DNA from: a virus
Virus record (IMG/VR): IMGVR_UViG_3300034418_006779
Span: 1-64,000 of that record
DNA length: 64,000 nt
Direction: 5' to 3' (one strand)
Part shown: piece after piece, positions 5,863 to 49,300 of the stretch
Numbering within the stretch: the first letter of the stretch is position 1
Layout of the letters: every line of letters starts with the position of its first letter
Notes under the pieces: generated by a model
Databases searched by the model: none
Seen by the model: the letters and a program-made list of their open reading frames with translations, nothing else
What the model was told of the DNA's origin: nothing
Translations under genes and position numbers: made by a program

Positions 5863-6154
5863 AGCCGTAGCTGAAAAGCACGGTATTCCACAAGGAACAG
5901 TTCGATATGCTACAAAGCACTTTTGCAGAGAAGCAAAAGACTATTTAAAAGAATGTGATAATAAAGGTGTACTCATCAATGGATTTGGAACCTTACTACC
6001 ACATAAACCTAGCATCGACGCTAAAATCAAGCGATATATTCGTTTTCTGCGAAAGGATGTCGATGAAGCTAGTAAAGAAAGAGCTAGAAAAAAGCTCAAA
6101 ATATATTGGAAATTTCGCAGAAAAATACAACCAGAAAGGTATAAATATTTTTAA
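5846..6154 (+). CDS. IHF/HU-like DNA-binding protein
   Basis: YKAVAEKHGIPQGTVRYATKHF...KGVLINGFGTL fits the HU pattern; typical of crAss-like phages upstream of TerL. Confidence 0.65.
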   Translation: MEKYYKAVAEKHGIPQGTVRYATKHFCREAKDYLKECDNKGVLINGFGTLLPHKPSIDAKIKRYIRFLRKDVDEASKERARKKLKIYWKFRRKIQPERYKYF

Positions 6155-6158
6155 TTAA

Positions 6159-6593
6159 ATGACTACAGCACAATTAAACAAACTGACTAAAAAAGATCTC
6201 GTAACTAAAGTAGAAGAACTACAGAAATCAGTTCAATCTACTCAAGATAAATTGAAGAGAGCACAGAGCTCTAGCAAGAAAGCAGATAATGTAAGAGCTC
6301 TCGGAGAGACTTTTTCACTCAAAGCTGCTGCAGATACTATTGAGAAACTTGACGCACGATGCGAAGTTCTCGGTGACCAAAACACTCGACTTTCAAATGA
6401 ATTGGTAGCTCGCGATGAGTTTATCGAATCAGTACTTGAAAAGTACGCCAAGCTTAAAGAGTTTGTTGAGGGCATCAAGGAGTACATCGAGGAGCGTCAG
6501 CCTTACTACTTCATTTCATGGAGAAAGTATGTTCAGACAATCAAGTATATCTATAACGAGCTAAGAGACCTATTGAGCAAAGACGAAGAGTAA
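6159..6593 (+). CDS. coiled-coil hypothetical protein
   Basis: Heptad-rich 144 aa. Confidence 0.7.
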   Translation: MTTAQLNKLTKKDLVTKVEELQKSVQSTQDKLKRAQSSSKKADNVRALGETFSLKAAADTIEKLDARCEVLGDQNTRLSNELVARDEFIESVLEKYAKLKEFVEGIKEYIEERQPYYFISWRKYVQTIKYIYNELRDLLSKDEE

Positions 6594-6594
6594 T

Positions 6595-7206
6595 ATGGCA
6601 TCAGAAAAAACCATGAACGATTACATCGTGATGGCTAAAGAGGATGCGGCTATTCAAGAAGGAGAACCAAGGGATCAGCATTTTATGGCTGATTCCGAGA
6701 CTCCAGAAATCCTCATCCCTGAAGCTGAGCAGATGAAACAGCACAGAAAAAATCAGGAGCGGGAGATTAAGCTCGCTCACCAGTATAACGATACTATTCA
6801 CACTCTTGATCCTAGGTATTCACAACAGATCACCCCAGTAAATGGGAAGCTTCTTGTAAGAGCTTACGTGATTGATCCTGTTGATGAGAATGGAGTGTTC
6901 GTAGGATTTGGACATATTTATGTTCCTAAGAAAGGAAATGAATATCAGTCTGAGCCAGTCCCTAACCCACTACCATATCAAGTTAGAGCGGTAGTAGTTA
7001 GTAGTGATAATGAAAATTACCAAGCAGGACAAGAGGTTCAACTCCACCCACGAGTAATTCAACTCAAACCATTCAGAGGAACAGAAGCTCTGATTTGTGA
7101 GAACATGTTCGCACGACATGACGCTTCTTTTGATTTTGATAATCCCTATGATCACTTTGGTTATCTTATGGTAAGACCAGGAGATATCGAGTGTATTATT
7201 AACTAA
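6595..7206 (+). CDS. GroES-like co-chaperonin with N-terminal extension
   Basis: ITPVNGKLLVRA...RAVVVS...YQAGQEVQL...YLMVRPGDIECII follows the Cpn10 pattern (P..D.VLV...G.VVAVG...GD.V...YL.....DI.A.I). Confidence 0.6.
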   Translation: MASEKTMNDYIVMAKEDAAIQEGEPRDQHFMADSETPEILIPEAEQMKQHRKNQEREIKLAHQYNDTIHTLDPRYSQQITPVNGKLLVRAYVIDPVDENGVFVGFGHIYVPKKGNEYQSEPVPNPLPYQVRAVVVSSDNENYQAGQEVQLHPRVIQLKPFRGTEALICENMFARHDASFDFDNPYDHFGYLMVRPGDIECIIN

Positions 7207-7213
7207 ACCAATT

Positions 7214-7570
7214 ATGAGACGACTAATTCTAACATTCCTACTCTTGTTGTCTATAGCATTCGCTCAGCAAACAGGAGAACAAACACAGTATTTAAAAGGT
7301 AATGAAGTAGTTCTTGTAACTCCAGAAGAAGGTAAATTATGTCTTTATCAGACTAAACCGTTTGATTATTATAAGATTCATATTTACCAACAACAGGAGC
7401 GTAAGGTTACTTACCAAGTACATAAACCATGGCTCGGTTGTGAGATTAGAGAATGGACATTTGATACTACTAATTATGAACCTGGAAAATATGTTATGAT
7501 GTTAGAATATAGACAACCTCAAATTATAGGACCTAAGAAATGGGTCTACTTACCTTTTATTGTAGAATGA
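7214..7570 (+). CDS. secreted protein: Sec signal peptide plus Ig-like/T9SS-CTD-like domain
   Basis: MRRLILTFLLLLSIAFA|Q; KIHIYQQQERKV...FDTTNYEPGKYVMML. Confidence 0.55.
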   Translation: MRRLILTFLLLLSIAFAQQTGEQTQYLKGNEVVLVTPEEGKLCLYQTKPFDYYKIHIYQQQERKVTYQVHKPWLGCEIREWTFDTTNYEPGKYVMMLEYRQPQIIGPKKWVYLPFIVE

Positions 7571-8043
7571 TTACTCCAAATAATAAAGGTAAGCTACGAA
7601 GAGATGAGGAGATAGATTCTCCTTATATCCTTTTGGTTGAGAAGCACGGGGAGGTGTTTAAAGAACCTCAAGCTTATAAACGAGATGAGGTAGAGATACC
7701 GAAAGGATCGCATTTAGTGGAGATAGATGTAAAGGAAGATACTTCAGTATGTGGAATATTTAAAGATGAATTAGCGACATTTAATGTCATAAACATGTTC
7801 AAGGTAGCTGACTCTATCCAGTATATGGCTAAAGAGAAAGCAGGCTTGTTACCTGAGCACGAACTTGAACAATTTAGTTATCGTAAAAAAGTATGTAAAC
7901 CCTGCCTAGATAATGGCTCTTGTTTGGTATGTGGCTGTAAAACACCAAACAGACTTTATTCCCGGGCCAAATGTGCAGGAGATAAATATCCAAAACTCCT
8001 TAATAAGGAGGATTGGGAAGAGTATAAGAAGACTACCGACTAA
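7567..8043 (+). CDS. IF3 N-terminal-domain-like protein fused to a Cys-rich Zn-finger
   Basis: RRDEEIDSPYILLVEKHGE...GSHLVEID...SVCGI; C-terminal CKPC-x5-CLVCGC-x11-C; ATG at 7567 (ATGA overlap) preferred over 7540. Confidence 0.55.
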   Translation: MITPNNKGKLRRDEEIDSPYILLVEKHGEVFKEPQAYKRDEVEIPKGSHLVEIDVKEDTSVCGIFKDELATFNVINMFKVADSIQYMAKEKAGLLPEHELEQFSYRKKVCKPCLDNGSCLVCGCKTPNRLYSRAKCAGDKYPKLLNKEDWEEYKKTTD

Positions 8044-8131: not shown

Positions 8132-8209
8132 GGGGCGAAGCTATACGGCATAGCACGGGATACGCCATGGCCCGATGATAGTAAGGTTCGAATCCTTACC
8201 GCCCCTCCA
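8132..8209 (+). tRNA. tRNA-like gene with encoded CCA and an aberrant anticodon arm (possibly Gly-GCC)
   Basis: GGGGCG/CGCCCC acceptor stem, GCTA/TAGC D-stem, TAAGG-TTCGAAT-CCTTA T-arm, U73 followed by CCA. Confidence 0.7.
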
Positions 8210-8220
8210 AGCTAAGCACT

Positions 8221-8781
8221 ATGGAAAATAAGATTTTTAAAGTAATTGAGAATAAACCTAGGATTACTCCTGAGGGACTCAACATACCAGAGTTTAAGAA
8301 ACTATGGTACAATGACAAAGATGGAAGAGAAAAGTGGACTGCTCAAGGTGAGCTTGCATATGTCTATCATATGATTGATCCGGGTTCGAGTTATGCGAAT
8401 CTGGATTACGAGCTTAAAGAAGAAACCATTATACAGGATTTTATTCCTAAGAAGAAGCAAGACTATTGGAAACCTAATGAGTGGGTGATAGCAGCAATGG
8501 AGAAATACAAGAAAATGATAGAAACTCCTGCTGTCAGAATGTTGAACTCAGCTCGAAAATTAGCTGACAAATACGCTAAGTATTTTGATAATATCGATCT
8601 CCAAGAGAGAGATGAAGGAGGGAATCTAGTCCATGACCCAGCTAAGGTTATGACTACTTTAAATAAGATTCCCGATATGATAAAAGCAATTAACACACTC
8701 GAAGAAGAAGTGAGGAAAGGAAATCAAAGTAATGATATTCACGTTCGAGGTGGAAAAGAATTTAGTAATATATTTGACTAA
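8221..8781 (+). CDS. conserved crAss-like protein upstream of TerL (candidate terminase small subunit)
   Basis: Helical protein with C-terminal VRGG; position before TerL; function inferred only. Confidence 0.5.
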   Translation: MENKIFKVIENKPRITPEGLNIPEFKKLWYNDKDGREKWTAQGELAYVYHMIDPGSSYANLDYELKEETIIQDFIPKKKQDYWKPNEWVIAAMEKYKKMIETPAVRMLNSARKLADKYAKYFDNIDLQERDEGGNLVHDPAKVMTTLNKIPDMIKAINTLEEEVRKGNQSNDIHVRGGKEFSNIFD

Positions 8782-10346
8782 TGATAGAAAACGGACAAGA
8801 AGCAAGGAAGAAACTCTTGAATGGAGTTAATATCATGGACAAAGCAGTATCTACTACTCTTGGTCCAAAAGGCAGAAACGTAGCAATACAAAAACCAAAA
8901 GGCGTTCATGTAACAAAGGACGGAGTAACCGTCGCAAGCGCTGTCCATTCTTCTGATGCTGTTGAACAAATGGCTATCAATATGGTTAGAGAAGCTGCGT
9001 CAAACACGGTTAAAGGAGCAGGTGATGGGACCACTACTGCTACAGTTATAGCTAGTGAACTTATCAGACAAGGAATGAAATTGGTAGAAGCAGGACACTC
9101 TCCTATCGAAATTATTCGTTCGCTCAACACTTTAAAAGATAGAGTGCTGTTTGATCTAGACCAGAACGCTACTGACATCGAAGATGATCAGGTTAAACAT
9201 ATCGCTACCATATCTGCAAATAATGATGAAGAAATTGGATCGCTTATTGCAGAGGCTATTGAAGCCGTAGGAAAATATGGAATAATCACAGTAGAGGAGT
9301 CCGACTCGATTCATACCGACATTAACGTAACAGAAGGTATGCAATTCGATAGAGGCTACCTCTCTTCAAGTTTTGTTACAGATCCTAGCACATTAATGTG
9401 CGAACTCAAGAATCCCTTGATTCTGATCTATAACAAGAAAATAACACAAGTAAAGGAGATCACTCCTGCACTTGCAATCGCAGCTAAAAATGAACGACCC
9501 CTTCTCATTATATGTGATGGCATGGAGCATAACGCTCTGTCTACCGTTATTGTCAATTCTGACAGAGGCGTGGTACAGTCCTGTGTAGTACAAGCACCCG
9601 CATATGGTGAAATTAGAAAAGAACATCTTACAGATATCGCAACACTCACAGGAGGTAAGTTCATAAATACAGATGAGGCAATGAACGTAGCCAATGTAGA
9701 TCTCCAGATCCTAGGCTCTTGTTCAGCAGTAAAAGTAGGACCGAATGAAACACTTATCCTCGAAGGAGATGGAGATGCTGATGCAATCGCATATCGCGTG
9801 GCGTCCTTACGTAAACTCATTGAACTGGAGCAAAGCCCATATGAGCAAAAGAAGCTCAAAGAGCGTCTTGGCAAACTTGATGGTGGAGCGGCAGTTATAC
9901 GTGTTGGAGCGTCTTCAAATGTTGAACTTAAGGAGAAGCGTGATCGTATTGATGACGCACTTGGTGCAGCAAAAGCGGCTATATCTGAAGGAGTTATTGC
10001 AGGAGGAGGACTTGAAGCTTGGAATCTCGGAGAATCATATTCAGATCCGAATGATTATGGAGCTATACTCATGGAAGCGGCTCTTAAGAGACCCTTTCGA
10101 CTCATTCTTGAGAATGCAGGACTCGATCCCTACCAAGTACTTTCTAAACGACCGAAGCAAACCGATGTTTATAACGCATTGCGAAACGTATGGGTAGACC
10201 CTATGAAAGATGGATTGCTCGATCCTAAGAAAGTATTGCGCTTAGCAATTCAAAATGCAGTATCAGTGGCGTCAATGATTTTGACGACCGAATGTTTAAT
10301 TTATAGTGATGAGAGACCCGAATTACAACAGGCACGGGAACTATGA
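8781..10346 (+). CDS. groEL: group I chaperonin GroEL (phage-encoded)
   Basis: TLGPKGRNV, VTKDGVTVA, AGDGTTTATV, EGMQFDRGYLS, ELKEKRDRIDDAL, DPKKVLRLAIQNAVSVASMILTTEC. Confidence 0.97.
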   Translation: MIENGQEARKKLLNGVNIMDKAVSTTLGPKGRNVAIQKPKGVHVTKDGVTVASAVHSSDAVEQMAINMVREAASNTVKGAGDGTTTATVIASELIRQGMKLVEAGHSPIEIIRSLNTLKDRVLFDLDQNATDIEDDQVKHIATISANNDEEIGSLIAEAIEAVGKYGIITVEESDSIHTDINVTEGMQFDRGYLSSSFVTDPSTLMCELKNPLILIYNKKITQVKEITPALAIAAKNERPLLIICDGMEHNALSTVIVNSDRGVVQSCVVQAPAYGEIRKEHLTDIATLTGGKFINTDEAMNVANVDLQILGSCSAVKVGPNETLILEGDGDADAIAYRVASLRKLIELEQSPYEQKKLKERLGKLDGGAAVIRVGASSNVELKEKRDRIDDALGAAKAAISEGVIAGGGLEAWNLGESYSDPNDYGAILMEAALKRPFRLILENAGLDPYQVLSKRPKQTDVYNALRNVWVDPMKDGLLDPKKVLRLAIQNAVSVASMILTTECLIYSDERPELQQAREL

Positions 10347-12663
10347 TCCTAAAGTTGCAAGAGTATGGGATGACTATGAAACGTCCCATCTACCTTATGT
10401 AGATCTCATAGACAAATCGATTTATGGCGAACTAACTAACGTTGGAACGCGAAATCCTGTTCAAAATCTTGAATGGGATTTTCTCTATTTTGAAGATACT
10501 AGTGTCTTTTCACCAGCAGCTAACTACTTTACAAAAGTAAAAGAAGAAACTGGCACAGGGGAATATTGCCCCTATCTTGAAGGAACTGTTAACTATGTTA
10601 AGTGGTGGAAAGAAGAATGGAGAAGATGTGTAGAAGGATATGAGGTTGGAGGAGTATGGATTCCAGGTGAATTCTATTTCTATCTCAACTATTGTATCAT
10701 TACGAGAGTAATAAATGAAGAATCAGGAGAAGTTGGGGAATTCTTTCCTCGCTTTCTAACAATGGACTTCTACTGGTTTCTCGAGTTAGATGCCTGTGAA
10801 AATCCAGATAAAGCGATAAATAAGCAACACCTTGCTATGGCGAAGTCTCGTCGTCTTGGTTTCTCATTTAAGCAAGCAGCTGGATGTTCTCACAAGTTCT
10901 TTTTCTTTAGAGAATCAACTTGTATCATTGGCTCTGAGTACGGAGAGAAAAGCCGAAATACATTCGAAATGGCACTGACTATTATAGACTTTGTCAACGA
11001 GCATACAGAGTTCCGAACACCTCTTGGAACCAGAAAAGTATCAGATAACGGATGTATTGTAGTAGCTGGAGCCAAAGTAAAGGTACGAGGAAAAGAGTTC
11101 TTTAGAGGTAGAAAATCAAGAATCATTACCGTTTCGTTCCACAATAAACCCGACGCAGCAGCCGGTTATGGAGCTGTCAGAGTTATATTTGAGGAGAGCG
11201 GTATGATAAAACAGTTCACTAATGCGTGGGCATTTACGGAACCAACACTACGTTCCGGGGCCATCAAGAAAGGAGTATGTATTGCTTTCGGTACTGGTGG
11301 TGATATGGATGGAGCAACACGAGATTTTGCCGAAGCCATGCTAGCTCCACAAGCTAGTGAATTCAAAGTGTACGAAAATATTTATGAGTACACTCCTCAG
11401 CTAGGGAGTTCCGGACTATTCTTCGACGCCTTATGGTTTAGAGAGGGTTCAGAGGTTACCCTAAAAGATGGATCTACTCATGTAGGACTAGACAAACAAG
11501 GAAATGCCATCCGCTGGGTTGCCGAACTTTCGTTAAATGCAAAGCGAATTAGGCTGAAGGATGCTACTAAAAAGGCTAAAGCTACCTTTCTTACTCAGAA
11601 CTGTAAGACTTTATCTGAAGCATTCTTGATCTTAGATGGAGCTGTATTTCCAACTGAAGAAGTATCAGACAGGATTAATGTTCTAAGAAACCAAACAGCT
11701 ACCTATAAACCTTACGTTTATGGTAACTTAGTAGAAACAGAAGTGGGTGTTAATTTTAAACCCGATTTAGAATCAAAACTGCTGCCGATGAACTACTTTC
11801 CTCTAGAGGGAAATGAGTCAATGGAAGAATTAAAAGGGTGTGTAGTGCAATACTACGCTCCGCAGACAGTAGATGGGCAAGTACCAGATGATGCCTATAT
11901 TATAGGACATGACCCATATGCAGTAGAGGGGTCGGTACATATTACATCGGGAACATCCCTTGGTGTAGCCTATGTAATGAGAACGAATAAGTATATAAAA
12001 GAGCTAGGATTACCCGGTGTGATTGTAGCCAGTTATATAGGAAGAGAACAAAGATCTGATGATTACAATTATAATCTTTACAAGTTAGCTAAATACTATA
12101 ATGCAAAGATTATGTTTGAGAACAACCGAGGGCAGGTGAAGCAGTACTTTCAGCATAAGCGATCGCTACACATGCTTTGTCAGCCTCCCGGGCATGTTAT
12201 TGACAAACACATTTCAAAATCCACATCAACCACAAGAAAATTTGGATACACAACTGTCAATAAACAATTTAAGGAAGAATTGATAAGATATGTTATCGAC
12301 TGGCTGCTATCCCCAGCTCTAGAAGGCGAAGGGAAACGACTACTAGATACCATATTAGACGAAGCTTTATTACAGGAGATGCTTCGATTTAATTTCGAAC
12401 ACGGAAACTATGACCGAATCATGGCTCTTATTGGATGTATATTATATCTAGAAAACCACAAAATTGAAAAGACTGTCGCACCCAAGCCAAAACCACTAAG
12501 CTTCTTATCAAACAATCCTTATCTATTTGATATAGAAAAATTAAATCATGCAAACAGACATTTTAAAACACAAAATATCTCAACGCAAAAAGCTCGCCAA
12601 CGACGCCAAATGGGGTCGTCAGTACATGGACCACATCTCCCCGGTATATTTGGGGAATTCTAG
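10306..12663 (+). CDS. terL: terminase large subunit
   Basis: KSRRLGFSFK (Walker A), VIFEESG (Walker B), GTGGDMDG, IIGHDPY and NYDRIMA nuclease motifs, all crAss-type. Confidence 0.92.
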   Translation: MMRDPNYNRHGNYDPKVARVWDDYETSHLPYVDLIDKSIYGELTNVGTRNPVQNLEWDFLYFEDTSVFSPAANYFTKVKEETGTGEYCPYLEGTVNYVKWWKEEWRRCVEGYEVGGVWIPGEFYFYLNYCIITRVINEESGEVGEFFPRFLTMDFYWFLELDACENPDKAINKQHLAMAKSRRLGFSFKQAAGCSHKFFFFRESTCIIGSEYGEKSRNTFEMALTIIDFVNEHTEFRTPLGTRKVSDNGCIVVAGAKVKVRGKEFFRGRKSRIITVSFHNKPDAAAGYGAVRVIFEESGMIKQFTNAWAFTEPTLRSGAIKKGVCIAFGTGGDMDGATRDFAEAMLAPQASEFKVYENIYEYTPQLGSSGLFFDALWFREGSEVTLKDGSTHVGLDKQGNAIRWVAELSLNAKRIRLKDATKKAKATFLTQNCKTLSEAFLILDGAVFPTEEVSDRINVLRNQTATYKPYVYGNLVETEVGVNFKPDLESKLLPMNYFPLEGNESMEELKGCVVQYYAPQTVDGQVPDDAYIIGHDPYAVEGSVHITSGTSLGVAYVMRTNKYIKELGLPGVIVASYIGREQRSDDYNYNLYKLAKYYNAKIMFENNRGQVKQYFQHKRSLHMLCQPPGHVIDKHISKSTSTTRKFGYTTVNKQFKEELIRYVIDWLLSPALEGEGKRLLDTILDEALLQEMLRFNFEHGNYDRIMALIGCILYLENHKIEKTVAPKPKPLSFLSNNPYLFDIEKLNHANRHFKTQNISTQKARQRRQMGSSVHGPHLPGIFGEF

Positions 12664-16376: not shown

Positions 16377-17912
16377 ATGACTAAAAGTAACGGACAATTA
16401 GCGGTTCAGTATTACCAAGGATTTGGTGGTAAGTCTTTCGACTCGAACCATTACGCTGACGCTTTCCGTGGTAGCGCTCCACATCACTTTGGTATGCAGG
16501 TATCTAAAATCTTTACCGCTATCAATAAATATGAGCACCGCGTACTTAACAACTTGACCTATGGTCGTGGAATGTACGAAGTGATTCAGGACGATGTGTA
16601 CAAGTGGACTATCGCAGGAGACTCTCTCGTAGAATTCAGAATTACAGAACTGCTCGAATCAGGTAACAATTATCCAGGTCGTGGACTCCAAGAGTTCCGT
16701 ATCGCCGTGGATAAAGGCTGGATGGGAAAACCAGTCATGATTCAGTTCGAGGATAACAGTATGCCTCGCGCTCAGATTATGGAAGATCCTATTAAAGTAG
16801 GAGATTCTTACTACTATACATTGAGACTTGAAACAGACGATCCAAACGTATGGCTCGATCCTGCTAACATTCAGGTTGGAAAAGTTGTTATCGACGCCGG
16901 TACAGCGATCCAGAACGAGATGAACCAAGACGCTGCTGGCGGATACTACGGTTCTCAGATGGATCTCCAGTGCCAGATTGGTGCGGTAGCTCGTGAGTTT
17001 TCCATCACAGACAAAGTTATCCGTAAGGAGCTTGCTGCTGTACGCGAGAAGCGTAACTTGAATTCTATTCCTCAGCATTCTCGTACTTCTGAAGGATATG
17101 CATTTGCTATCCGTCAAGGAGACAAGATTATTCCTCGTGGTGCATTCATCACTATGGCTGAGGCTCACCTACTTGAAGCGACTGACATGGATATTGAGGT
17201 ATCTATGAAGTTTGGTCGTAAGAGTAGATTCCAGGACCCTACTACAGGATACGTTCTGAAAACCGCTCCGGGTTGGAGACAGTTGGTTCTCGATGGCCAC
17301 GTATTTTACCAGAATGGTTCTTTGACTGCTCAGCAGCTTGAGGACTACTTGCATGGTATTTTCCTACATCGTGTTGGTGCCAAAGATCGTAAGATCAAGT
17401 TGGGCACTGGGGAAGGAGGACGCCGTATGTTCCACCAGATTCTTTCTGATGAGGCAAACAGCTTCATGACTCTCGATACCAATTACATTGGTAAAGCGTC
17501 ATCTCCTTGGAACAGTAATGCTTTGTCATACGGATTCCAGTTCACCAAATTTATCGCTACTAACGGTATTGAGGTTGAGTTGATCCACGATCCTATGGCA
17601 GACGACCATCACTGGTGTAAAACTAAGCACCCAGACGATCCTAAATTCACAGTTGATTCTTTCCGTTTCGATATCTACGATTTCGGTGAGACAATGAGCT
17701 TGGGAAGCAACATGAAAATGGTAATCGAAGAAGGTGTAGATCTCTACGCTTATGTTGCCAACGTTGTTGATCCTAAAACTGGCGCTGTGAATAACGGTAG
17801 TCGCGTGGCTAGCTTTGACAAAGGTGTAAGCATCCGTCGTGAGCGTTCTGGTTCACTTTGGATTTGTGATACATCTCGTTGTGGTTCTATCATCTACGAC
17901 CCAGAAGCATAA
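16377..17912 (+). CDS. major capsid protein (crAss type)
   Basis: 511 aa; YKWTIAG, TGEGGRRMFHQ, YGFQFTKF..NGIEVELIHDPM.D; codon usage suggests high expression; synteny. Confidence 0.88.
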   Translation: MTKSNGQLAVQYYQGFGGKSFDSNHYADAFRGSAPHHFGMQVSKIFTAINKYEHRVLNNLTYGRGMYEVIQDDVYKWTIAGDSLVEFRITELLESGNNYPGRGLQEFRIAVDKGWMGKPVMIQFEDNSMPRAQIMEDPIKVGDSYYYTLRLETDDPNVWLDPANIQVGKVVIDAGTAIQNEMNQDAAGGYYGSQMDLQCQIGAVAREFSITDKVIRKELAAVREKRNLNSIPQHSRTSEGYAFAIRQGDKIIPRGAFITMAEAHLLEATDMDIEVSMKFGRKSRFQDPTTGYVLKTAPGWRQLVLDGHVFYQNGSLTAQQLEDYLHGIFLHRVGAKDRKIKLGTGEGGRRMFHQILSDEANSFMTLDTNYIGKASSPWNSNALSYGFQFTKFIATNGIEVELIHDPMADDHHWCKTKHPDDPKFTVDSFRFDIYDFGETMSLGSNMKMVIEEGVDLYAYVANVVDPKTGAVNNGSRVASFDKGVSIRRERSGSLWICDTSRCGSIIYDPEA

Positions 17913-24202: not shown

Positions 24203-27200
24203 ATGAGCCATCCTTTTTATTTTTTAGATGAAAGCAGCATTTTTAAACGCAGAAATGCGTTGGATGCTGATGGTAATATTAATATTACCGAACATATTAT
24301 TGATCTGATTGATCAATATGCTCCTACGGGTGGCGGAGGAGGCGGTGATACTTCAATTATGACCGTCAACCTTAATGGTACAGTAACGCATGATGATGGT
24401 ACTGGAAATTTAACTGTATTCCAATCTGGTTGGACTACGGTTACTGATAATCTAGATGGAACGGCAACCTTTGAGTACCCTAACGGTACTCAGGTTGACC
24501 TGACTCTAGACCAAGTATTAAGTGTTAATAGTCAGACAGGTAATGTAACATTGACTACAGATAATATATCCGAAGGGGTAAGTAATCTGTATTTCACTGA
24601 TTTACGAGTATCTAGTAACGCCGATGTCGGCGCTAACACTACTGCTAGGCATACCCACAGTAATAAAGCTATATTAGACTCAATTACTTCTGTGGGATCG
24701 GGAGATATTATAACATCTCTCGAAAGATCCAAACTTTCAGGCATTGAATACAATGCTAAAAACAACACCGTATCAAATCTTGGCAGCGGGGCAGGACTTT
24801 ATAAACAACAGACTGGTTCAGACTTTGAGTTTAAAACTCTTACGGGTAGTGGGCTAATCAGCATTGTTAGTGGGTCTAATACCGTTGACGTTACTACATC
24901 TGCCGAAGCAAACACTGCTTCTAATATAGGTGCAGGAATTGGAATTTTTAAACAGAAGTCAGGAGTAGATTTAGAACTTCGTTCCTTGAATGGAGCAGAC
25001 TCTAAAATCACAGTGGCTCTTGATGGAACGGATAACATTGATATTGGTTTTGGTACAGTAAACCTAAATGATATAGCAGATATCGACGACTCTGCTAAAG
25101 CAAATGATTACGTACTTACATATAATAGTACATCTGGTGACTGGGAAGCAAAGGCTAACCCCGGCGCTACTGTAACAGCATCTTATGGTACTATTACAGA
25201 TGGTACTAATCCAACAACTGCTGTTGGAACAGACACGTTCAAACTGATGTCTAGCGACTCCACAGTAACTATTGTTACTGAAAATGATAATGGAGCACAT
25301 GGAGATCATGCTAACTTTACTGTCAATCAAGCAAATATTAACTCAGCCTCTATCAATAACGACGCTGGGTTTATTAGTGGTGTGGCTTGGGGTGATATTA
25401 CTGGGACTTTGTCTAGTCAAACTGATTTACAAAGTGCGCTGAATGGAAAGTCCGACACTTCTCACACGCACGCTTCTTCAGTTATCACTTATGATAACGG
25501 GGTCAGCGGTCTTACTGCTACTAATGTTAAGGCTGCGATAGATGAGCTAGCGGTCGATTTTCATACTCATGCTAATAAAGCTGTTCTAGACGGTATCTCT
25601 TCTGGGGATATTACAAACTGGGACACAGCATTTGGATGGGGAGATCACTCAGCTCAAGGTTATCTAACAGCCATGGCTGTATATAATAGCGATTCTTTAG
25701 TTAGTACAAGAACTAAGCTTAACTTCTATAATGGAACAGCCACTACCGCCGTCGTTACAGATGACGGAGGAACAGGAAGTGCTGATATAACATTCAACGT
25801 TGTTCCGGGATCAATTAATACCGGAGACTTGAACAATAATGCTAACTTTGTAACTCAAACTGAGTTTGATAACAACTTAGCAGGAACAAATAACACAACT
25901 TCTTTCACGCCTACGCTTGCCCATCACCCTGCTACTAAAGCATGGGTTGAATCTCAGATTACGGCTAGTACAGGAATTGACAATATCTCCGAAGCTGATG
26001 ATACTGATATTACTACACCATCCACAGGGCAAATACTCATTTATGATGGTACGGACTCTTGGGATAATGTATCAATGTCTGGTGGAGCTACTATTAACTC
26101 CTCAGGAGTTGTTACTCTTACTAACAGTTCTGTTACAGGACAACAACTTACTGGACTAAATGTGGCTTCTGGTGGTTCCATCACAGGAACAGATACTATC
26201 AAACAAGCTTTTGGTAAACTTTCTCATGATCAAAGCGACTTAATTACTCTTAGTGGAGTATCGAGAGGAGCTACAGACTTAGCTACTTTTACAGGAACAA
26301 CAATTCCTGATAATAGAACTATAAAAGAAGCTATACAAGATTTAGAAACGGCTGTAGAATCCGCCGCTGGCGGAGGGATTACTGCTGCATATTCATTTAT
26401 GACAGACGGTGCAACTACATCTACAGCAGCAGGAAATGATACTTTTGAGTTTAGATCAGCTAACAACGCTATCACAGTAGCGGTTACTAATGATGATGCA
26501 ACATATAATGATAACTTATTACTCACATTCAATGTAGGTAATGTAGATCATGACTCACTATCTGGCTTTGTAGGTAACGAACACATCAATCACGGAAGTG
26601 TTAGTATCACTGCTGGTACTGGACTTGACGGAGGAGGAGATATTACAACATCAAGAACTCTTAACATTTCAACAACTGGAGTGTCTGCTAATTCTTATGG
26701 AGCAGCAGGAACAGTTCCTACGTTTACAGTTAATGCGCAAGGTCAGTTGACCACTGCGTCTGATGTTGCTATCTCAATTACTGAATCACAGATTAGCGAT
26801 CTCCAGTCTTATGCTTTAGCATCACATACTCATTCAGGATTTAATAGAGCAACTTCTGCTTTAACCGGGGCAGATGTATTTGATGATTTTATTGTAACTA
26901 ATGGAATTACTACTGGTATTTCTACTAGAACAATGACATTAGCTGATCTTGGTTATACAGGAGATACTAATGCAAACGAATATACTCACCCAACAGGTGA
27001 CGGTAACTTACATGTTCCAGCAAATAGTACAACCAATGCCGGCAAGGTTCTTACTGCTAGTAGTACTGCCGGAGTATATACATGGGAAACTCCTACATCT
27101 GGGGTAACTGACCATACATTACTAAGTAACATTGGTACAAACACACATGCTCAGATTGATAGTCATATTGCAGATTCAACAATTCACTTTACGCAAGCTG

Positions 27201-30200
27201 CGATAAGTATTACTGAATCTCAAATTAGTGATTTACAAGACCCAGTTACTTTAGCGGGAACACCTGATTATTTAACATTATCAGGACAAGAAATAACACT
27301 TGGTCAAATTGACCTTGTTGCTGACGTTACTGGAAATCTGCCAGTTGGTAATCTTAACTCTGGAACAGGAGCTACAGGTTCTACATTTTGGGCAGGTGAT
27401 GGTACATGGAAAGCTGTTGATGCTTTTACCATGACAGTTGGTGGCGACGCTGGATCAGACCAGACAGTAAATAGTGGAGACTTGCTCGATATTACTACTG
27501 GTACTGCAATCACTACTACGGTATCTAAGGCGTTAACTACTGTTACTCTCGATATTGATCTTGACGATACTGCCGTGACTCCCGGATTATACGGAGGAGC
27601 TTCTCAAGTAGCAACTTTTACAGTTGACCAACAAGGAAGACTTACTGCCGCCGGAAACGCGAGTATTGATCATGGAAGTATAACAGGGTTAAGTGACGAC
27701 GATCACACACAGTATGCTTTACTTGCTGGACGAGCTGGAGGACAAACGCTAATTGGTGGAACAGGAGTTGGAGACAACTTATTATTCCAAACCACTTCAA
27801 ATGCATCTAAAGGATCGTACAGATTCTCAGAACTAACAACTAACGGGTTTGTTAAAACGACAGGGGCTAATGGAACATTAAGTGTTTCAGCAAATGTTGA
27901 TTTAGCAAGTGAAGTCACCGGCAATTTACCAGTGGGTAATTTGAACAGCGGTTCTGGAGCAAGCTCCTCTACATTTTGGAGGGGAGACGGTACATGGGCA
28001 GCACCTTCATATCCGTTTAGTAACTTTACTTTAGGGAGTGATAGCGGTGTTGATGTAACAGTTAATGACGCAGACTTAATAGACGTAGTAGGCGGAACTG
28101 GCATTACAGGAACGGTATCTAAAGCAGCTACAACTGCAACAGTTAGTTTAGCGCTTGATGATACGTCTGTAGTTGCAGGAAACTACGGATCTGTTTCGCA
28201 ATCACTAAATATCACAGTTGATGCTCAAGGTAGACTTACTGGTGCTACAGCTAATAATATATTGATTGCCTCAACACAAGTTACAGACCTTCAAGAGTTT
28301 GTAGAAGATACAATGTCTACTACAATAACAAGTGCTGATAGTACTATTTCTACATCATATGATGATGGTGCCGGAACACTTAGTCTAACAGTCAATGAGG
28401 CTCTTGTAGACCATAACTCTCTTAATAATTTAACAACTGGTGATCCGCATACTCAGTACTCACTGATTGCATCTGGAGCAGGCGCTCCTGTAACAACTCC
28501 TTCAAGAGTTGGTTTGATATATGTGGATACAACAGGAGATGAGATTTATATCTCGGACGATACTACTGCATCAGGAGATTGGCAAAATGTAAGTACTGGT
28601 GGAGGTGGAATATCTACTATTGCTGCCGCAACTGATACTGACATCACAACTCCTCTTACTGCTCATATGTTATTATATGATGGTACGGATAGTTGGGATA
28701 ATGTTGCCATGTCTGGTGACGCTACCATTGCAAATACTGGGGCAGTAACATTAGCTAACTCTGGCATAACACCCGGAAGTTACGGATCAACATCCTTTAT
28801 TCCTACTTTCACAGTAGACTCTAAAGGTAGATTGACTGCTGCTGGAAACTCCTCATTAGAACTTTGGAAAACAATTATTGCTGATTCTGGTAGCAACCAT
28901 AATGCTGGTGGAAATGACACTCTTGAATTGGTTGGAGGAGATGCTATATCTACTGCAAATACATTTATTGGTAATCATACAACTACTTTTAATCTTGACA
29001 TAGCTAAGCAAACAGAAGCATCTAGTGTTGACGGTGCGCTTGACTGGTTAGTATTAGAAGCCGCTGGTGGTACAGTTTATAAAGTACACCCTGACGATCT
29101 TGGCGCTGGAAGTGGACTAAACAACGTAGTTGAAGATACCACTCCTCAACTTGGTGGAGAACTAGATGCGTTATCTAATCCTATTACTAATCTTGATCAT
29201 ATTGGTTTTGATCTTGCCGCTGCCTATACAGTAGGGCAAGGCGAATTAGCATGGAACGCTGATGAAGAAACATTAGACCTTGGACAAAACGGTGCTACAT
29301 TACAGATAGGACAAGAGATACACTACCATGTTAGAAATAATTCTGGCGTTGATATTTCTGATGGAGAAGCTGTAATGTTTACAGGAACAATTGGCGCAAG
29401 TGGGAGAATAACAGTAGCCGCATTTGATAACGACGGAGTTACTTCTCCTGAGTATTTTATAGGAATTGCTACTGAAGATATTACGAACGGAACAGATGGA
29501 AAAGTAACACACTTTGGTAAAATTCGAGGTATTGATACCACAGGAACTCCTTATAGTGAGTCTTGGTCAGACGGAGATTTAATTTATGCTGATGCTACTA
29601 CTCCGGGCGCGCTTACTAATGTACAGCCTTCTGCACCTAGTATGAAAGCAGCTGTTGCATTGGTTATTTATGCAAATGCTACTACTGGTTCATTATTTGT
29701 AAGATCAGAGGTTAATGAAGGAATACACGATTTACATGATGTAAATATTACATCTATTGGGGACAATGAAATTCTTACATATGATAATGCTTCAAGTACG
29801 TGGATCAACGAAACACTTGCGGAGGCAGGAATATCAGCAGTAGGACATACTCATGCTACAAGTGATATTACTTCAGGAACATTTGCCGATGCTAGAATAT
29901 CTTCTTCCTCTGTTACACAACACGCAGGAGATATTAATATCGGTGATTTAGGAAATGTTAGCGCTACCGCAGCATCTCCTAGCGAAGTATTAACTTGGTC
30001 GGGGTCTAACTGGTATCCAGATTTAGTAGCAGCTTTAGGCGTAACGTTTGATAATACTACTTCTGGATTAACTGCAACTACAGTACAAGCAGCTTTAGAT
30101 GAAATTGATGGTAACGTTGATGGACTTGTAAGTGATGCTGTATATGGAGTAAGCTGGAATGGAGTAACAACTATAGCAGCCAGTAAAAATGCTGTGTACG

Positions 30201-30748
30201 ATAAAATAGAAGATGTTGTCGGAGATGTGTTTAATAACACATTAGCAATAGGAGCGTCTGGCGGAGCTAACCTTGGTTCAATGACTAATCCTATTTATAC
30301 TGATAACTCTAATGTAAAATCATTACTTGAAGAAGTTGCTGATGAGGCGACTACTGAAAGATTATCCATATACTGTGTAGATGGTGCAACAGATGTTGAT
30401 ACGGCAGGAGATGGAAATGGATATATTTTAATACCAAATGGTGTAACAGGAAATATTATTGAAGTAGGAGCAAGTTTTGTCACTGCTGGTACAGGTGATA
30501 ATACTGGTACAACTGATATACAAATTGCAAGAATAAGAAGCGGTAGTTCTGTAGATGTTCTTTCAACAAAACTGACAATAGACGCTACTGAAACCAATTC
30601 TTCTACTGCTGCTACAGCCGCAGTAATAAATACAGCAAATGATGACGTTCAAGAGTGGGATATGCTTAGAATTGACATAGATGCAGTGTCGTCTGTGACA
30701 ACTGGAAGTATGCCTGAAGGACTCTTGGTTTACGTTATAATTAACTAA
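24203..30748 (+). CDS. long tail fibre protein (2181 aa)
   Basis: G/T/S/D-rich; [19 protein letters not shown] motifs, four YG...TVD..GRLT repeats, duplicated modules. Confidence 0.85.
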
Positions 30749-32946: not shown

Positions 32947-33293
32947 TGTTACAACTACTACAAGCAACAGAGGGACTTACTCTTCTTGAGTCTTTAACTG
33001 TTTATGGACCATTAGGTGTATGGGCAGGTGTAGCGACTGTTGGCTGCTATGTATTATACAAACAAAATCAAAAGCTTCATGCTGACGCTAAAGACGCAAT
33101 GATAAAAGTAACAGAACTCGTGACCAAAACACTGTCTGCTATACAGATGAGTGAAAAGAATACCGGGAAAATCAATGAACTGTTATTTGTGTTAGAAGAC
33201 ACCAAACATCATTGGAAAGGCGTTCCTGATTTGAAGTCAAAGATTGAGGCTTTGATCACAATACTTGAAATGAAAAATAATGGAATGGCTTAA
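32946..33293 (+). CDS. putative holin (one TM segment + coiled coil)
   Basis: YGPLGVWAGVATVGCYVLYKQNQKL, BhlA-like layout; sits in the lysis cassette. Confidence 0.55.
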   Translation: MLQLLQATEGLTLLESLTVYGPLGVWAGVATVGCYVLYKQNQKLHADAKDAMIKVTELVTKTLSAIQMSEKNTGKINELLFVLEDTKHHWKGVPDLKSKIEALITILEMKNNGMA

Positions 33294-33891
33294 CCGACTT
33301 AGGTATAAATTAGGGATGTGGTTCTTCGGAAAGAGGATCATGCGTCGCGCGTATAAAATGACACTAGGCGATGCTATCGATTCTTTATTAGAAGAATTAG
33401 AGAATCCAGATAATACATTTGCTAAACTATCTCATAGTAGATATTCACATCAACTATACGATATGTTCATCAAGACTCCCTTTCTATTGACACTACTAAT
33501 AGATGTCAAAACTAATATTCTTGATTGCTCGTCTACGTGGATGAAATATGCAGGGTGGTCAAAAGAAGAAATGTTAGATAAAACATTTTTAGATTTGCTC
33601 CATCCTGATGACAAGAATCGGACAATTGCTGGGCATAAAAATGTAGAAGATTTAGATACCTCTTCTGTATTCGAAAACCGATATCTTTGTAGAAACGAAA
33701 CTCGGTATTCATATGAAGAAAATGGTGAACATTGGATATGGGTAGAGTGGCAAGTTAATGTTGATTACAAGAACGATGATACTCATCGTATTTGTGTGGC
33801 AAGAGTAGTTAATCCTAATACACCTAAATTTAACTTTTTACAAGAACAATACAGTAATGACAAGAAAACACCAGCTCTTACGCCAGCGTAA
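33280..33891 (+). CDS. PAS-domain protein
   Basis: TPFLLTLLIDVKTNILDCSSTWMKYAGWSKEEMLDKTFLDLLHPDDKNRT...FENRYLCRNE...WIWVEW...ICVARVV. Confidence 0.85.
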   Translation: MEWLNRLRYKLGMWFFGKRIMRRAYKMTLGDAIDSLLEELENPDNTFAKLSHSRYSHQLYDMFIKTPFLLTLLIDVKTNILDCSSTWMKYAGWSKEEMLDKTFLDLLHPDDKNRTIAGHKNVEDLDTSSVFENRYLCRNETRYSYEENGEHWIWVEWQVNVDYKNDDTHRICVARVVNPNTPKFNFLQEQYSNDKKTPALTPA

Positions 33892-34048
33892 GAAAGACCG
33901 TCGATATAAGTTAATGAAACAATGGGGCGGAGATTGGACTCTAATGAAAAACAACCATGTACCTACAAAGATTACTAAGAACACTTCAGGTAATACCCCA
34001 ATCACCAAAACAACAGCCCTCAACGATGCCATACTTATCAAACAATAA
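33857..34048 (+). CDS. small basic hypothetical protein
   Basis: Fills the gap between the PAS and endolysin genes, overlapping both. Confidence 0.35.
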   Translation: MTRKHQLLRQRKKDRRYKLMKQWGGDWTLMKNNHVPTKITKNTSGNTPITKTTALNDAILIKQ

Positions 34049-34445
34049 ACCAGAAGACTTTGATAAATACTTTAAAGAATCTGAGTTTAACATCGACGGA
34101 GTAACAGTTTACGACAAGATGGATCCACTAATGATCTATCTTCTTGTACAGCTTAGAAAGAACACGGGACTTCCTATAGTTCCTACCTCCACTTACAGGA
34201 GCCCTGAAAAGAACAAGGCAGTAGGTGGTAGTAAATATTCAAGACATTTGAAAGGTCAGGCAGTAGATTTCATCTGTGACAATTCTTCTGACAGAGCTAT
34301 CTTCGTTAGAGAAGCTCTATTACTAGGATTAACAGTAGGAGTTATGAAGACGGCTTTGCATGTAGATATGCGCGCTTATGATAACTCTAAGAGAAAACTT
34401 AATCCTGATAAAGTTATACTCTTCCATTATTACGGAAGATACTAG
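34026..34445 (+). CDS. endolysin, Zn peptidase M15A family
   Basis: STYRSPEKNKAVGGSKYSRHLKGQAVDF...LHVDMR; ATG at 34026 preferred over 33957. Confidence 0.88.
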   Translation: MPYLSNNKPEDFDKYFKESEFNIDGVTVYDKMDPLMIYLLVQLRKNTGLPIVPTSTYRSPEKNKAVGGSKYSRHLKGQAVDFICDNSSDRAIFVREALLLGLTVGVMKTALHVDMRAYDNSKRKLNPDKVILFHYYGRY

Positions 34446-46369: not shown

Positions 46370-49300
46370 ATGGCTGAAACAACTCAAAATACAAACCCAG
46401 TATTTGATAAAATATTACAGCAAAATAGAGCGCAGGCACTCCACGGAGCGTCTGCGTCTAAAGGTTTAGGAACAACTCTAGTAGACGGTCCAATCTACAC
46501 AGGATACGACGATCCTAGAATGAGCCTACTCACCCAATCGGGGTGGGAACAAGCACGGAGAGCAATCGGAGGTGGACTAACCTTGGGTGCTTTAGGTGCT
46601 ATGAAGAACACATATCAATTCGCACATGATATTGGTAACTTCTTCGAAACAATGTTTAGTTCTGATAAATCTATGTCAGATTTATTGGATATGGAACAAT
46701 ACTCTCAATCAACGATCGCAAAGAACTTAGGAGAGATCATTGATGAGAAGAGAGAAGCATTTGCAATCCATAAAGCAGATCCCAATGATGTGTTTGATTG
46801 GGATGATTCAGGATTTTATTGGCAGTCAGTTCAAGGAATCCTAGACTCAGCGGTACAGTTTGCTCTTCCTGGTGCAGGGGCAGTAAAGGCTGTAGGGGCT
46901 ATTCAAAAAATACCTAGACTATTTAGCTACTTCAAGAAAACAGAGAAGTTAGGACAAATGCTTACAGCAAGTAAGAGTGGACAACAGATCGCCAACTCTG
47001 TTGGTTCAGGTCTTTTAAGTAACCATATAGAAGGTACTTCTATGGCTTCAGAGATCTACAACAATACCATGAAGAACTTTGAGAAAGATATTCAGAAGTA
47101 TAGAGATAGTGAGGGTAGAGAAGGAATTTCTTTAGAAGAAGCTAAAAGGAGATCAGCATTCTCTGCTAACTCATTTAGAGAATGGAATAGACTCATGTTC
47201 TTTACTGACGCAGTTCAGTTACATGGTCTATTTAAAGGAAAAGGTTTCACACGAAATTTATTAGATGCCAAAGGATTTAAAGAAAGTGTAGGTAACTTAA
47301 CTAAGTTCAATACTAAAAACCCAATTTATGGTTTCCTTAAGCAAGGAGTAACAGAGGCCGGGGAAGAGATTGTACAAGGAATTAGTCAGCGTCTTCATGA
47401 AGATATGGCTAAAGGAGTAGACACCCCTATTGGGGAAAGACTCCTAGATTATGTCACTGATTCAGAGTTACTATATGAAGGATTCTTAGGATTTTTTGGC
47501 GGCGGCCCTCAAAAAATAGCCACCCAGTTTGCACAAGAAGGAGATGCAGTTCTTACTGGTAAGTTTTTCACTAAAAAGTACTGGAATGATAAGAATGCCA
47601 TGTACAACCAACAGCAGGAAATAATCAAGGAAACTAATGATTATTTTAAAAGCGAGTTAGGAAGACAAATGGTAGGACATAATATTGCTGCCGATGCTGT
47701 TATTGCGGGCCGTCCTGAGTTAGGGGAGATTGCCACTAATCGTGAGTTCTCTCGACTAGCTACAATGCATTTTGAAGCTGGTACAACCGAGGTGTTCGAA
47801 CAACACCTAGATGACATTGCTAACAACGCAGAGTACCGAAAGGAGAATAAATATAGTGACGATGATGCGGCTAATGCCAAAGAGTTACTGAAAGAGTTAG
47901 ATCGTTTAGAGCAGCAATGGATGAAGACATCCCGATATGCTGTTGACGACAAACATCAAGTAAGACTCTTCGAGACAAACAATATCATCAATAGCCTAGA
48001 GAAGCTGGTTGGATCCCAGCAAGAACATATAGATAAGCTAACGCAGAATCTTAATGAAACTATTATAGACGATGCTGTTGAAGCAGCCAATCTAAAAATT
48101 AGTAATGAGAAGAAGGACGCACTTCGTAAAATCTTATCTATAGATGAGCAAGGCAAGCTTAGAGCTCCAGTAGATGAGCTGGCTGAAGCTGATTTACATC
48201 CTGCTCATGCTAAAGCTGTAGCTGAGGTATTCGATACTCAATCTCAAGTAACAGATTTAAAAGACCAGCAAGCTATTCTTGATGAAATGAATAGTAAGTT
48301 GAGAGACGCCAAAAAAGATAGGGCTAACTATAACTCTTTTGGATATCGTAAATCTTATATTGAACATAAGAAGAGGCAGGAAAAAAGGCTGAAGGATAAG
48401 ATTAAAAGAGAGGAAGCTGCTGAAAGAAAACAACGACGTGCAGATAAAAAACTAAAGAGAGCTGAGACAAGTAAAAAGCTTAAAGGAAAAGCTAAGCAGC
48501 TTGCTAAGAAAGGAGAACTTAAGAAAGAAGCTAAGAAGATAATGGATAAGGCTGCTACTAAAGCTAAGCTAGCTCCTGAAAATAAAAAGTCAGAACCGTT
48601 ACAGACTGTTGATCCTGCAACTAAACAACCAGTCACACCAACTCAACCTACTCCTAATGAATATATAGGAAAAGAGAGAGGAACGCTGCTGGCAGAGAGA
48701 AGTAAGAAAGAAGCTGTACTGAGTAGTAGCAAACCTGAAGAAATAATGCCTGTACTAGACGTACTAGCAGAGATAGGAGATGCGCTTGAGGAGCTCAGAG
48801 CTCAGCCATTTCAGCATAGTGGTAAATATGAATTTGCCCCACCAGCACATATCAAAGATGCTCTGGATGAGATGATCAATAGATCTAAGAGAATTATTCT
48901 CAATGAAGATACTAATGAGTATGAGCTGAAAGATGAGAACGGGAAGGTTGTCAGAACTTACAAAAGAGTAAGTAATGTTAGCAATCCTGACTATGATGAT
49001 TCTAATAAGTATGCTCATCATGCTACTCAGATTGGTTCAGCACTAGACTTGATTGCTAGAGATTTCTTTTCAGGCAATCTCAAGGCTTGGGACACATACT
49101 TAGTTGCAGACAAATTCGATAAGACTAAGAGTTATCCAGTGTTTAAAGGCAAGAAAGAGTTTGAACACTATCTTCATCAACTGGAAGATCTGAAGCTTGT
49201 TCTTAAAAGTAAAGGGCAAGTCATTATTGATCCAGGAATTGTAGATGGGAAAACATCTGAGTTTAAATTAGCTGATGATGAGAATGGAGTAGCTGGAACT

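Follow-up and report, generated by a model that had tools for sequence, protein, structure and literature searches.

A very probable IF3-N homologue fused to a widespread viral Cys-rich domain in a crAss-like phage

The gene and its protein

The window analysed here is a stretch of 64,000 nucleotides, positions 1 to 64,000 of the 109-kb IMG/VR virus record IMGVR_UViG_3300034418_006779, and the gene in question occupies its positions 7567-8043. The encoded protein (the window protein) consists of two parts. The N-terminal part (N-domain) is very probably a true, divergent homologue of the N-terminal domain of translation initiation factor 3 (IF3-N), and the C-terminal part (C-domain) is a member of a large, virus-only family of Cys-rich domains. 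The original prediction, which was made by eye from the sequence, knew of no such architecture among described proteins, and no IF3-N-only protein fused to another domain was found in Pfam, in the PDB sequences or in the literature searched. Other than as one half of IF3, IF3-N is hardly known. The coordinates of the domains and of the other features are collected in Table 1.

Position 7567 was preferred as the start over an upstream ATG at 7540, which is the start in one database gene call, because the orthologues begin with a common M-I-x-P-N N-terminus. The start overlaps the stop codon of an upstream open reading frame (ORF, 7214-7570), and judging from this ATGA overlap the two genes are likely to be translationally coupled. 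The upstream ORF has a signal-peptide-like segment at its N-terminus and a weak match to DUF3244 (E 0.0018). Five close relatives of the window protein are available, all of them metagenomic and with 61-69% identity; DNA was obtained for one distinct relative, L115, which is 69% identical. Between the window and L115, the proportions of nonsynonymous (pN) and synonymous (pS) differences are 0.21 and 0.89 for the whole gene, and 0.26 and 0.69 for the N-terminal 66 codons (dN/dS about 0.16); for the C-terminal part pN is 0.18, and the synonymous sites are saturated. Nonsynonymous differences are few relative to the synonymous ones, and therefore the gene is real and both of its halves are under purifying selection.

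Very probable homology of the N-domain to IF3-N

The similarity to the IF3-N consensus that had been noticed by eye was borne out by profile comparisons. The window protein itself gave no Pfam match at E<=1, and a search of the entire virus record at E<=10 did not recover IF3_N. Pfam IF3_N (PF05198) was the sole family matched by the orthologue P0002 (E 1.3e-4, 22.5 bits, profile positions 2-59 of 70) and the best family for the orthologue P0005 (E 9e-3, 16.6 bits), with both scores under the gathering cut-off of 26.9 bits. An IF3-N reference alignment and hidden Markov model (HMM) were built from 41 Pseudomonadota infC genes. With the filters off, the scores from this HMM were 16.3 bits for P0002, 15.7 for P0005, 10.2 for P0003 and 7.6 for the window protein, all in colinear alignments of nearly full length. 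Comparison of the six-sequence phage N-domain alignment with IF3-N by hhalign gave a probability of 86.7% (E 4.4e-6, score 32.7) over 57 ungapped columns with 26% identity, in which residues 10-66 of the window protein correspond to residues 13-69 of E. coli IF3. As a control, 200 column shuffles scored 10.6±2.3 with a maximum of 18.9, and the reversed alignment scored 8.7.

Simpler searches gave little. Compared pairwise with E. coli IF3 by BLASTP, the N-domain gave only one 19-residue match (E 0.06), which is too weak alone, and the whole protein had no match in a PDB sequence search at E<=10. A feature-based Atlas search with the N-domain yielded no usable match. In a word-indexed search with residues 1-70, a method that is insensitive here, only the protein's own cluster was recovered, and no stand-alone or otherwise fused N-domain was seen.

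The predicted structure also resembles IF3-N. In the AlphaFold2 model calculated from the six-sequence alignment, residues 10-70 have a per-residue confidence (pLDDT) of 80-88 and form four strands. The model has the arrangement of the beta-grasp fold, a four-stranded sheet on helix alpha1, as in bacterial IF3-N (PF05198; 1tif and 6o6d). The alpha1 region has kept its length, but its helix is predicted to be only about one turn long, and DSSP assigns only 3 helical residues to it. A Foldseek search of 350,542 PDB chains placed the IF3-N entries 6o6d and 1tif at ranks 1 and 2, although as weak matches (E 0.23 and 0.42; TM-score on the target 0.56 and 0.51), and the top ten held two further IF3-containing entries. 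VIA-align, which is independent of Foldseek, was used to compare 48,161 chains. Its rank 1 (Z 6.6) is apparently a trypanosome mitoribosomal assembly chain; ranks 2-3 were 1tif_A and 5me1_Y (Z 6.1, root-mean-square deviation 2.7 Å over 61 residues), and rank 4 was human mitochondrial IF3 (6rw4_8, Z 4.2). After the IF3 chains the score dropped to Z 3.1 for an unrelated chain, and other beta-grasp folds followed at Z 2.3-2.8. The structural and the sequence evidence are not fully independent, because the model itself was derived from the sequence. The original prediction had named a lack of profile or structural similarity to IF3-N as refuting it; both similarities are present, and by this check it was not refuted.

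The 18 columns of IF3-N with a conservation of 90% or more in the Pseudomonadota set were used to compare conservation. In the phage clade there remain N16 (as N or D), I19, L26, G31, L53, V54, E55, V64 and C65 (IF3 numbering), which belong mostly to the hydrophobic core and the turns; in the numbering of the window protein, the kept core comprises N/D13, I16, L23, G28, the L-V-E-I strand and V61-C62. The motifs N-E-x-I, L-V-E-I and V-C-x-I are accordingly in common with bacterial IF3-N. Lost in the phage clade are R25, G35, A42, A46, P58, A60, P62 and P63, among them the alanines of helix alpha1 and the PP motif, and N or H stands in place of D52. In IF3, the residues R25, Q33 and R66 contact G19, Ψ55, C56 and A57 in the elbow of the initiator tRNA, and their mutation lowers the fidelity of initiation (PMC9723500). 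R25 is invariant in IF3; these three residues align to L22, V30 and G63 of the window protein, and the corresponding columns of the six-sequence phage alignment hold L/T/L/L/L/I (R25), V/V/V/S/N/gap (Q33) and G/G/G/S/G/I (R66). Because all three residues are replaced, the canonical contact with the tRNA elbow is unlikely to be preserved. A second binding site of IF3-N is located on the 30S platform near uS11 (PMC8266586).

The N-domain ends exactly where the linker helix of IF3 would begin. Compared with bacterial IF3, the phage protein thus stays below the Pfam gathering score, has neither the Lys-rich linker nor the C-terminal domain of IF3 (IF3-C), and is fused to a phage domain of presumed zinc-binding type. 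It also differs from the IF3 of other phages. Complete IF3 genes have been reported from huge and jumbo phages (PMC7162821, PMC7824862, PMC11895373), and by tblastn 60 phage records matched IF3, with at least 80% of the protein covered in 35 of them. The jumbo- and huge-phage proteins (Al-Shayeb et al. 2020, PMC7162821; Iyer et al. 2021, PMC7824862) are likewise phage-borne derivatives of host infC; however, they have both domains complete and are 40-74% identical to E. coli IF3 along 89-100% of that protein, whereas only a strongly diverged N-domain is found here, in a crAss-like phage of about 100 kb that is not a jumbo phage.

The C-terminal Cys-rich domain

The original prediction described the second half of the protein as a Cys-rich region that replaces IF3-C. 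The six Cys are present, and Pfam IF3_C (PF00707) is not matched in the window protein; however, residues 67-158 belong to PHROG 13610, so that the region is an independent and widespread phage domain and not a bespoke replacement of IF3-C. PHROG 13610, which has no function assigned, is matched by residues 74-156 with E 9e-13. An exhaustive profile search returned 851 cluster representatives (at 50% identity) with E<=1e-3, including 214 with E<=1e-10. Nearly all of them match the C-terminal part only (profile positions about 63-155), and most are 85-150 aa long; the usual form of the C-domain is a stand-alone protein of about 95 aa. The domain could be placed by a strict Cys-motif pattern in 79 of 154 members, 14 of which carry at least 35 residues N-terminal to it. 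Among the N-terminally extended members, scoring against IF3-N is confined to the clade of the window protein.

Among cultured phages, a C-domain was found only in those of Flavobacterium psychrophilum (29 records) and in Cellulophaga phage phi14:2 (two records). FpV4 gp06 (YP_009594062) and phi14:2 gp112 (AGO48990) have a homologous C-domain with the same Cys/Arg/Trp signature and are encoded upstream of terminase genes; unlike the window protein, they are stand-alone proteins of about 100 aa that lack the IF3-N-like domain, and both are annotated as hypothetical. In an alignment of 92 sequences, R106, C113, C122 and C124 are invariant, and E101, Q102, C119 and W150 are nearly invariant. The resulting signature, E-Q-x3-R ... 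C-x5-C-x2-C-x-C ... W, is present in the window protein, and its Cys cluster is presumed from the sequence to bind zinc.

With the 92-sequence alignment, AlphaFold2 modelled the C-domain at pLDDT 89 and a predicted TM-score of 0.76. The predicted fold consists of a long helix, a helical hairpin, the Cys knuckle and a final helix. No solved relative of this fold was found in the PDB (best VIA-align Z 3.4; Foldseek E at least 1.8), and in BFVD one uncharacterised phage protein resembles the model (TM-score 0.8). Weak matches to Pfam DUF6171 (PF19668) were seen in six of the 92 relatives, with a best E of 7.8e-4, and none for the C-domain of the window protein. An Atlas search with the C-domain returned only virus clusters named 'hypothetical', in one of which 12% carry DUF6171. 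The C-domain may be distantly DUF6171-like; the DUF6171 family is itself without known function, and the literature search found no paper mentioning it.

Three other assignments of the C-domain were rejected. An HNH endonuclease lacks support, as there is no conserved His or Asn and the fold matches are at noise level. The WhiB-like Fe-S proteins have only the C-x2-C-x5-C spacing in common with it, without homology. There is also no fold or HMM support for the terminase small subunit (TerS).

Genomic context and fusions of the C-domain

Fourteen IMG/VR loci were retrieved by the C-domain pattern. In 11 of them, which represent eight distinct layouts, the C-domain gene lies 0-3.5 kb upstream of an ORF of 695-818 aa on the same strand. 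This downstream ORF is the terminase large subunit (TerL) of PHROG 6681 in all nine cases tested (the eight layouts and the window). An ORF of 184-215 aa usually stands directly before TerL, in the position of TerS, and matched phrog_16390 (no function assigned) in four of the seven tested (Table 1); for the 186-aa ORF at this position in the window (8221-8781), no PHROG or Pfam match was found. The C-domain gene directly abuts TerL in L130. In FpV4 the order is gp06 (the C-domain protein), gp07, the endolysin gp08, gp09 and TerL (gp10). A homing endonuclease gene of the GIY-YIG/HNH type (L122, 5708-6793) was observed as an insertion between the zinc-knuckle gene and TerL.

The C-domain is also linked to other domains. 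The protein P0140 is a true fusion of a C-domain and Peptidase_M15_3, and a Peptidase_M15_3 gene lies directly downstream of the C-domain gene in L117 (about 6000-6796) and L118. A 246-aa ORF of L117 was considered as a further fusion of this kind and was rejected, as it represents two adjacent genes in different frames. Among the ten longest members scanned, six (P0016, P0082, P0101, P0135, P0142 and P0143) have a C-terminal Ig-like domain of the DUF1573 family.

Table 1. Features of the window protein gene and its surroundings, with candidate TerS genes of related loci
Feature	Location	Strand	Basis or remark
Coding sequence, IF3-N-like domain and PHROG-13610-type Cys-rich domain	7567..8043	+	158 aa, TAA stop; ORF list and sequence
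ATGA start/stop overlap with upstream ORF 7214-7570	7567..7570	+	Read from sequence
N-domain, residues 10-66, very probable divergent IF3-N (beta-grasp) homologue	7594..7764	+	hhalign, shuffles, Pfam in orthologues, AlphaFold2, Foldseek, VIA-align, dN/dS
C-domain, residues ~67-158, predicted helical zinc-knuckle of a large virus-only family	7765..8040	+	PHROG 13610, AlphaFold2
Cys cluster C110-x2-C113-x5-C119-x2-C122-x-C124-x11-C136, presumed Zn site	7894..7974	+	92-sequence alignment
tRNA-like gene, called Gly(GCC), encoded CCA, non-canonical anticodon arm	8132..8209	+	ARAGORN
184-215-aa ORFs before TerL, candidate TerS	L123 4165-4746; L124 8004-8555; L125 2308-2910; L127 4826-5377		phrog_16390

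The phage and its host

The virus is a crAss-like phage. Its markers in the window include a Crass_capsid major capsid protein (16377-17912), GroEL (8781-10346) and TerL (PHROG 6681, 10306-12663). The host is probably a member of the Bacteroidota. A Shine-Dalgarno-like (SD-like) 4-mer precedes only two of 40 starts in the window, against a background of 15%, and the leaders are A/T-rich with A at position -3; these SD-poor, A/T-rich starts are of the Bacteroidota style and therefore support such a host. Moreover, the cultured carriers of the C-domain are phages of Flavobacterium and Cellulophaga, which points to a host of the Flavobacteriia type. Megablast of 8 kb of the window against cultured phages gave no match.

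The window holds further ORFs of note. The ORF at 46370-64000, which exceeds 5,877 aa and runs past the end of the window, is of the giant-protein type of crAss-like phages, and a second giant ORF of 2,181 aa lies at 24203-30748. A PAS-domain protein (33280-33891; PAS_3, E 3e-7) is encoded directly upstream of a Peptidase_M15_3 endolysin (33957-34445).

The neighbouring tRNA-like gene

A tRNA-like gene beside the protein gene had also been proposed. It was confirmed as a call by ARAGORN (Table 1), although the Rfam tRNA model (RF00005) had no match there at E<=1. The sequence folds as a cloverleaf in which the anticodon stem encloses 11 nt; in an alternative fold, the anticodon loop has 7 nt with C33, and A·G and U·G close it. 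The syntenic site of L115 (6540-6612) also folds as a cloverleaf and likewise has no match to the Rfam tRNA model; its acceptor stem is different in sequence and still pairs, its anticodon loop has 8 nt, and its T loop has 9 nt. Just upstream of the gene in L115 is a true tRNA-Ile(AAT) with an unusual anticodon (5914-5988; 43.4 bits in Rfam). In the window, the signal-peptide ORF 7214-7570 takes this place. With only two sequences, no functional link between the protein and the tRNA-like gene can be claimed.

Possible roles of the protein

The explanation that we tentatively favour is that the IF3-N fold has been exapted as a binding module on a late-acting, zinc-stabilised interaction protein of the packaging and lysis neighbourhood, and that the protein is not a working competitor of IF3. 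The C-domain, a helical domain of about 90 aa with a Cys4(-6) knuckle, would be the ancestral, conserved and function-defining part. A beta-grasp domain from bacterial IF3-N would have been grafted onto its N-terminus in a small clade that includes the window, and the IF3-N fold would there be reused for binding. The protein, presumably stabilised by zinc, may act late in infection as an adaptor. The C-domain family is associated with Ig-like domains, with endolysins and with the surroundings of the terminase genes, and therefore a late interaction module fits better than a translation factor.

Several observations weigh against this explanation. The C-domain is without a fold relative of known function. 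The M15 endolysin of the window is 26 kb away from the gene, and the link to lysis therefore fails locally. The synteny with TerL may mean common descent only, because all of the loci share one TerL family. In both relatives for which there is DNA (the window and L115), tRNA or tRNA-like genes flank the gene, and such neighbours fit a role related to translation or RNA at least as well. Moreover, an N-domain that is under purifying selection and has the core motifs of IF3-N might still bind the IF3-N site of the 30S platform.

Such docking would make the protein a ribosome-directed factor, a kind of cut-down IF3, which we consider unlikely. The N-domain would dock at the platform of the Bacteroidota 30S subunit near uS11, or at the tRNA elbow, and displace or modulate the host IF3-N; the tethered zinc module would add a new activity or help to remodel the platform for SD-independent initiation, phage messages would thereby be favoured, and the tRNA-like RNA might perhaps take part. 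The homology is indeed specific to IF3-N, selection has maintained the N-domain, and besides the tRNA site IF3-N has the platform site (PMC8266586). The starts of the phage in the window are SD-less (two of 40 against 15%) and A/T-rich upstream, and in Flavobacterium johnsoniae the formation of the 30S complex on an SD-less mRNA strictly required IF3 (PMC9976891). IF3 genes are also known in phages (PMC7162821), as in the 60 records found by tblastn. On the other hand, the tRNA-elbow residues R25, Q33 and R66 have become L, V and G, helix alpha1 is degenerate, as is the PP motif, and IF3-C is absent. Most activities of IF3 are carried by IF3-C. The other contexts of the C-domain are also those of terminase, endolysin and Ig-like domains, and not of translation genes.

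A role as an accessory of packaging or of the late genes, in which the zinc domain would bind DNA or the terminase (at a pac site, as a partner of TerS or as a late regulator) and the N-domain would be an extra module for binding nucleic acid or protein, is rather doubtful. It would agree with the location of the C-domain gene, which in nine of nine loci precedes the TerS-position ORF and TerL, with the abutting genes in L130, and with a Cys knuckle that is rich in Lys and Arg and has an invariant Arg; however, the fusions to the M15 peptidase and DUF1573 are hard to square with DNA binding, and the C-domain resembles neither TerS nor HNH nor any known zinc finger of the DNA-binding kind above noise. 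It is improbable that the IF3-N-derived domain serves an RNA partner, binding the adjacent tRNA-like RNA or the tRNAs of the phage for processing, protection or delivery. The aberrant-loop cloverleaf that immediately follows the gene in the window, the cloverleaf at the syntenic site of L115 whose different acceptor stem still pairs, and the additional true tRNA just upstream in L115 would be consistent with it, but these are two independent sequences only, and the elbow-contact residues are lost. No such neighbour was seen at C-domain genes elsewhere in a scan that was not systematic. The intergenic gaps of crAss-like phages, moreover, often hold tRNA genes, which also counts against an RNA partner.

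Implications

A diverged IF3-N that is under purifying selection on an unrelated phage domain indicates that the fold can be reused. If the protein still binds the ribosome, it would be a compact phage tool for the manipulation of initiation in Bacteroidota, which is SD-independent and poorly understood, and it would also amount to a naturally occurring separation-of-function form of IF3-N. The zinc-knuckle family comprises at least 851 clusters at 50% identity, and has a confident predicted fold with no solved relative. Assigning a function to this domain would annotate hundreds of phage genes, for which FpV4 and phi14:2 offer cultivable models.

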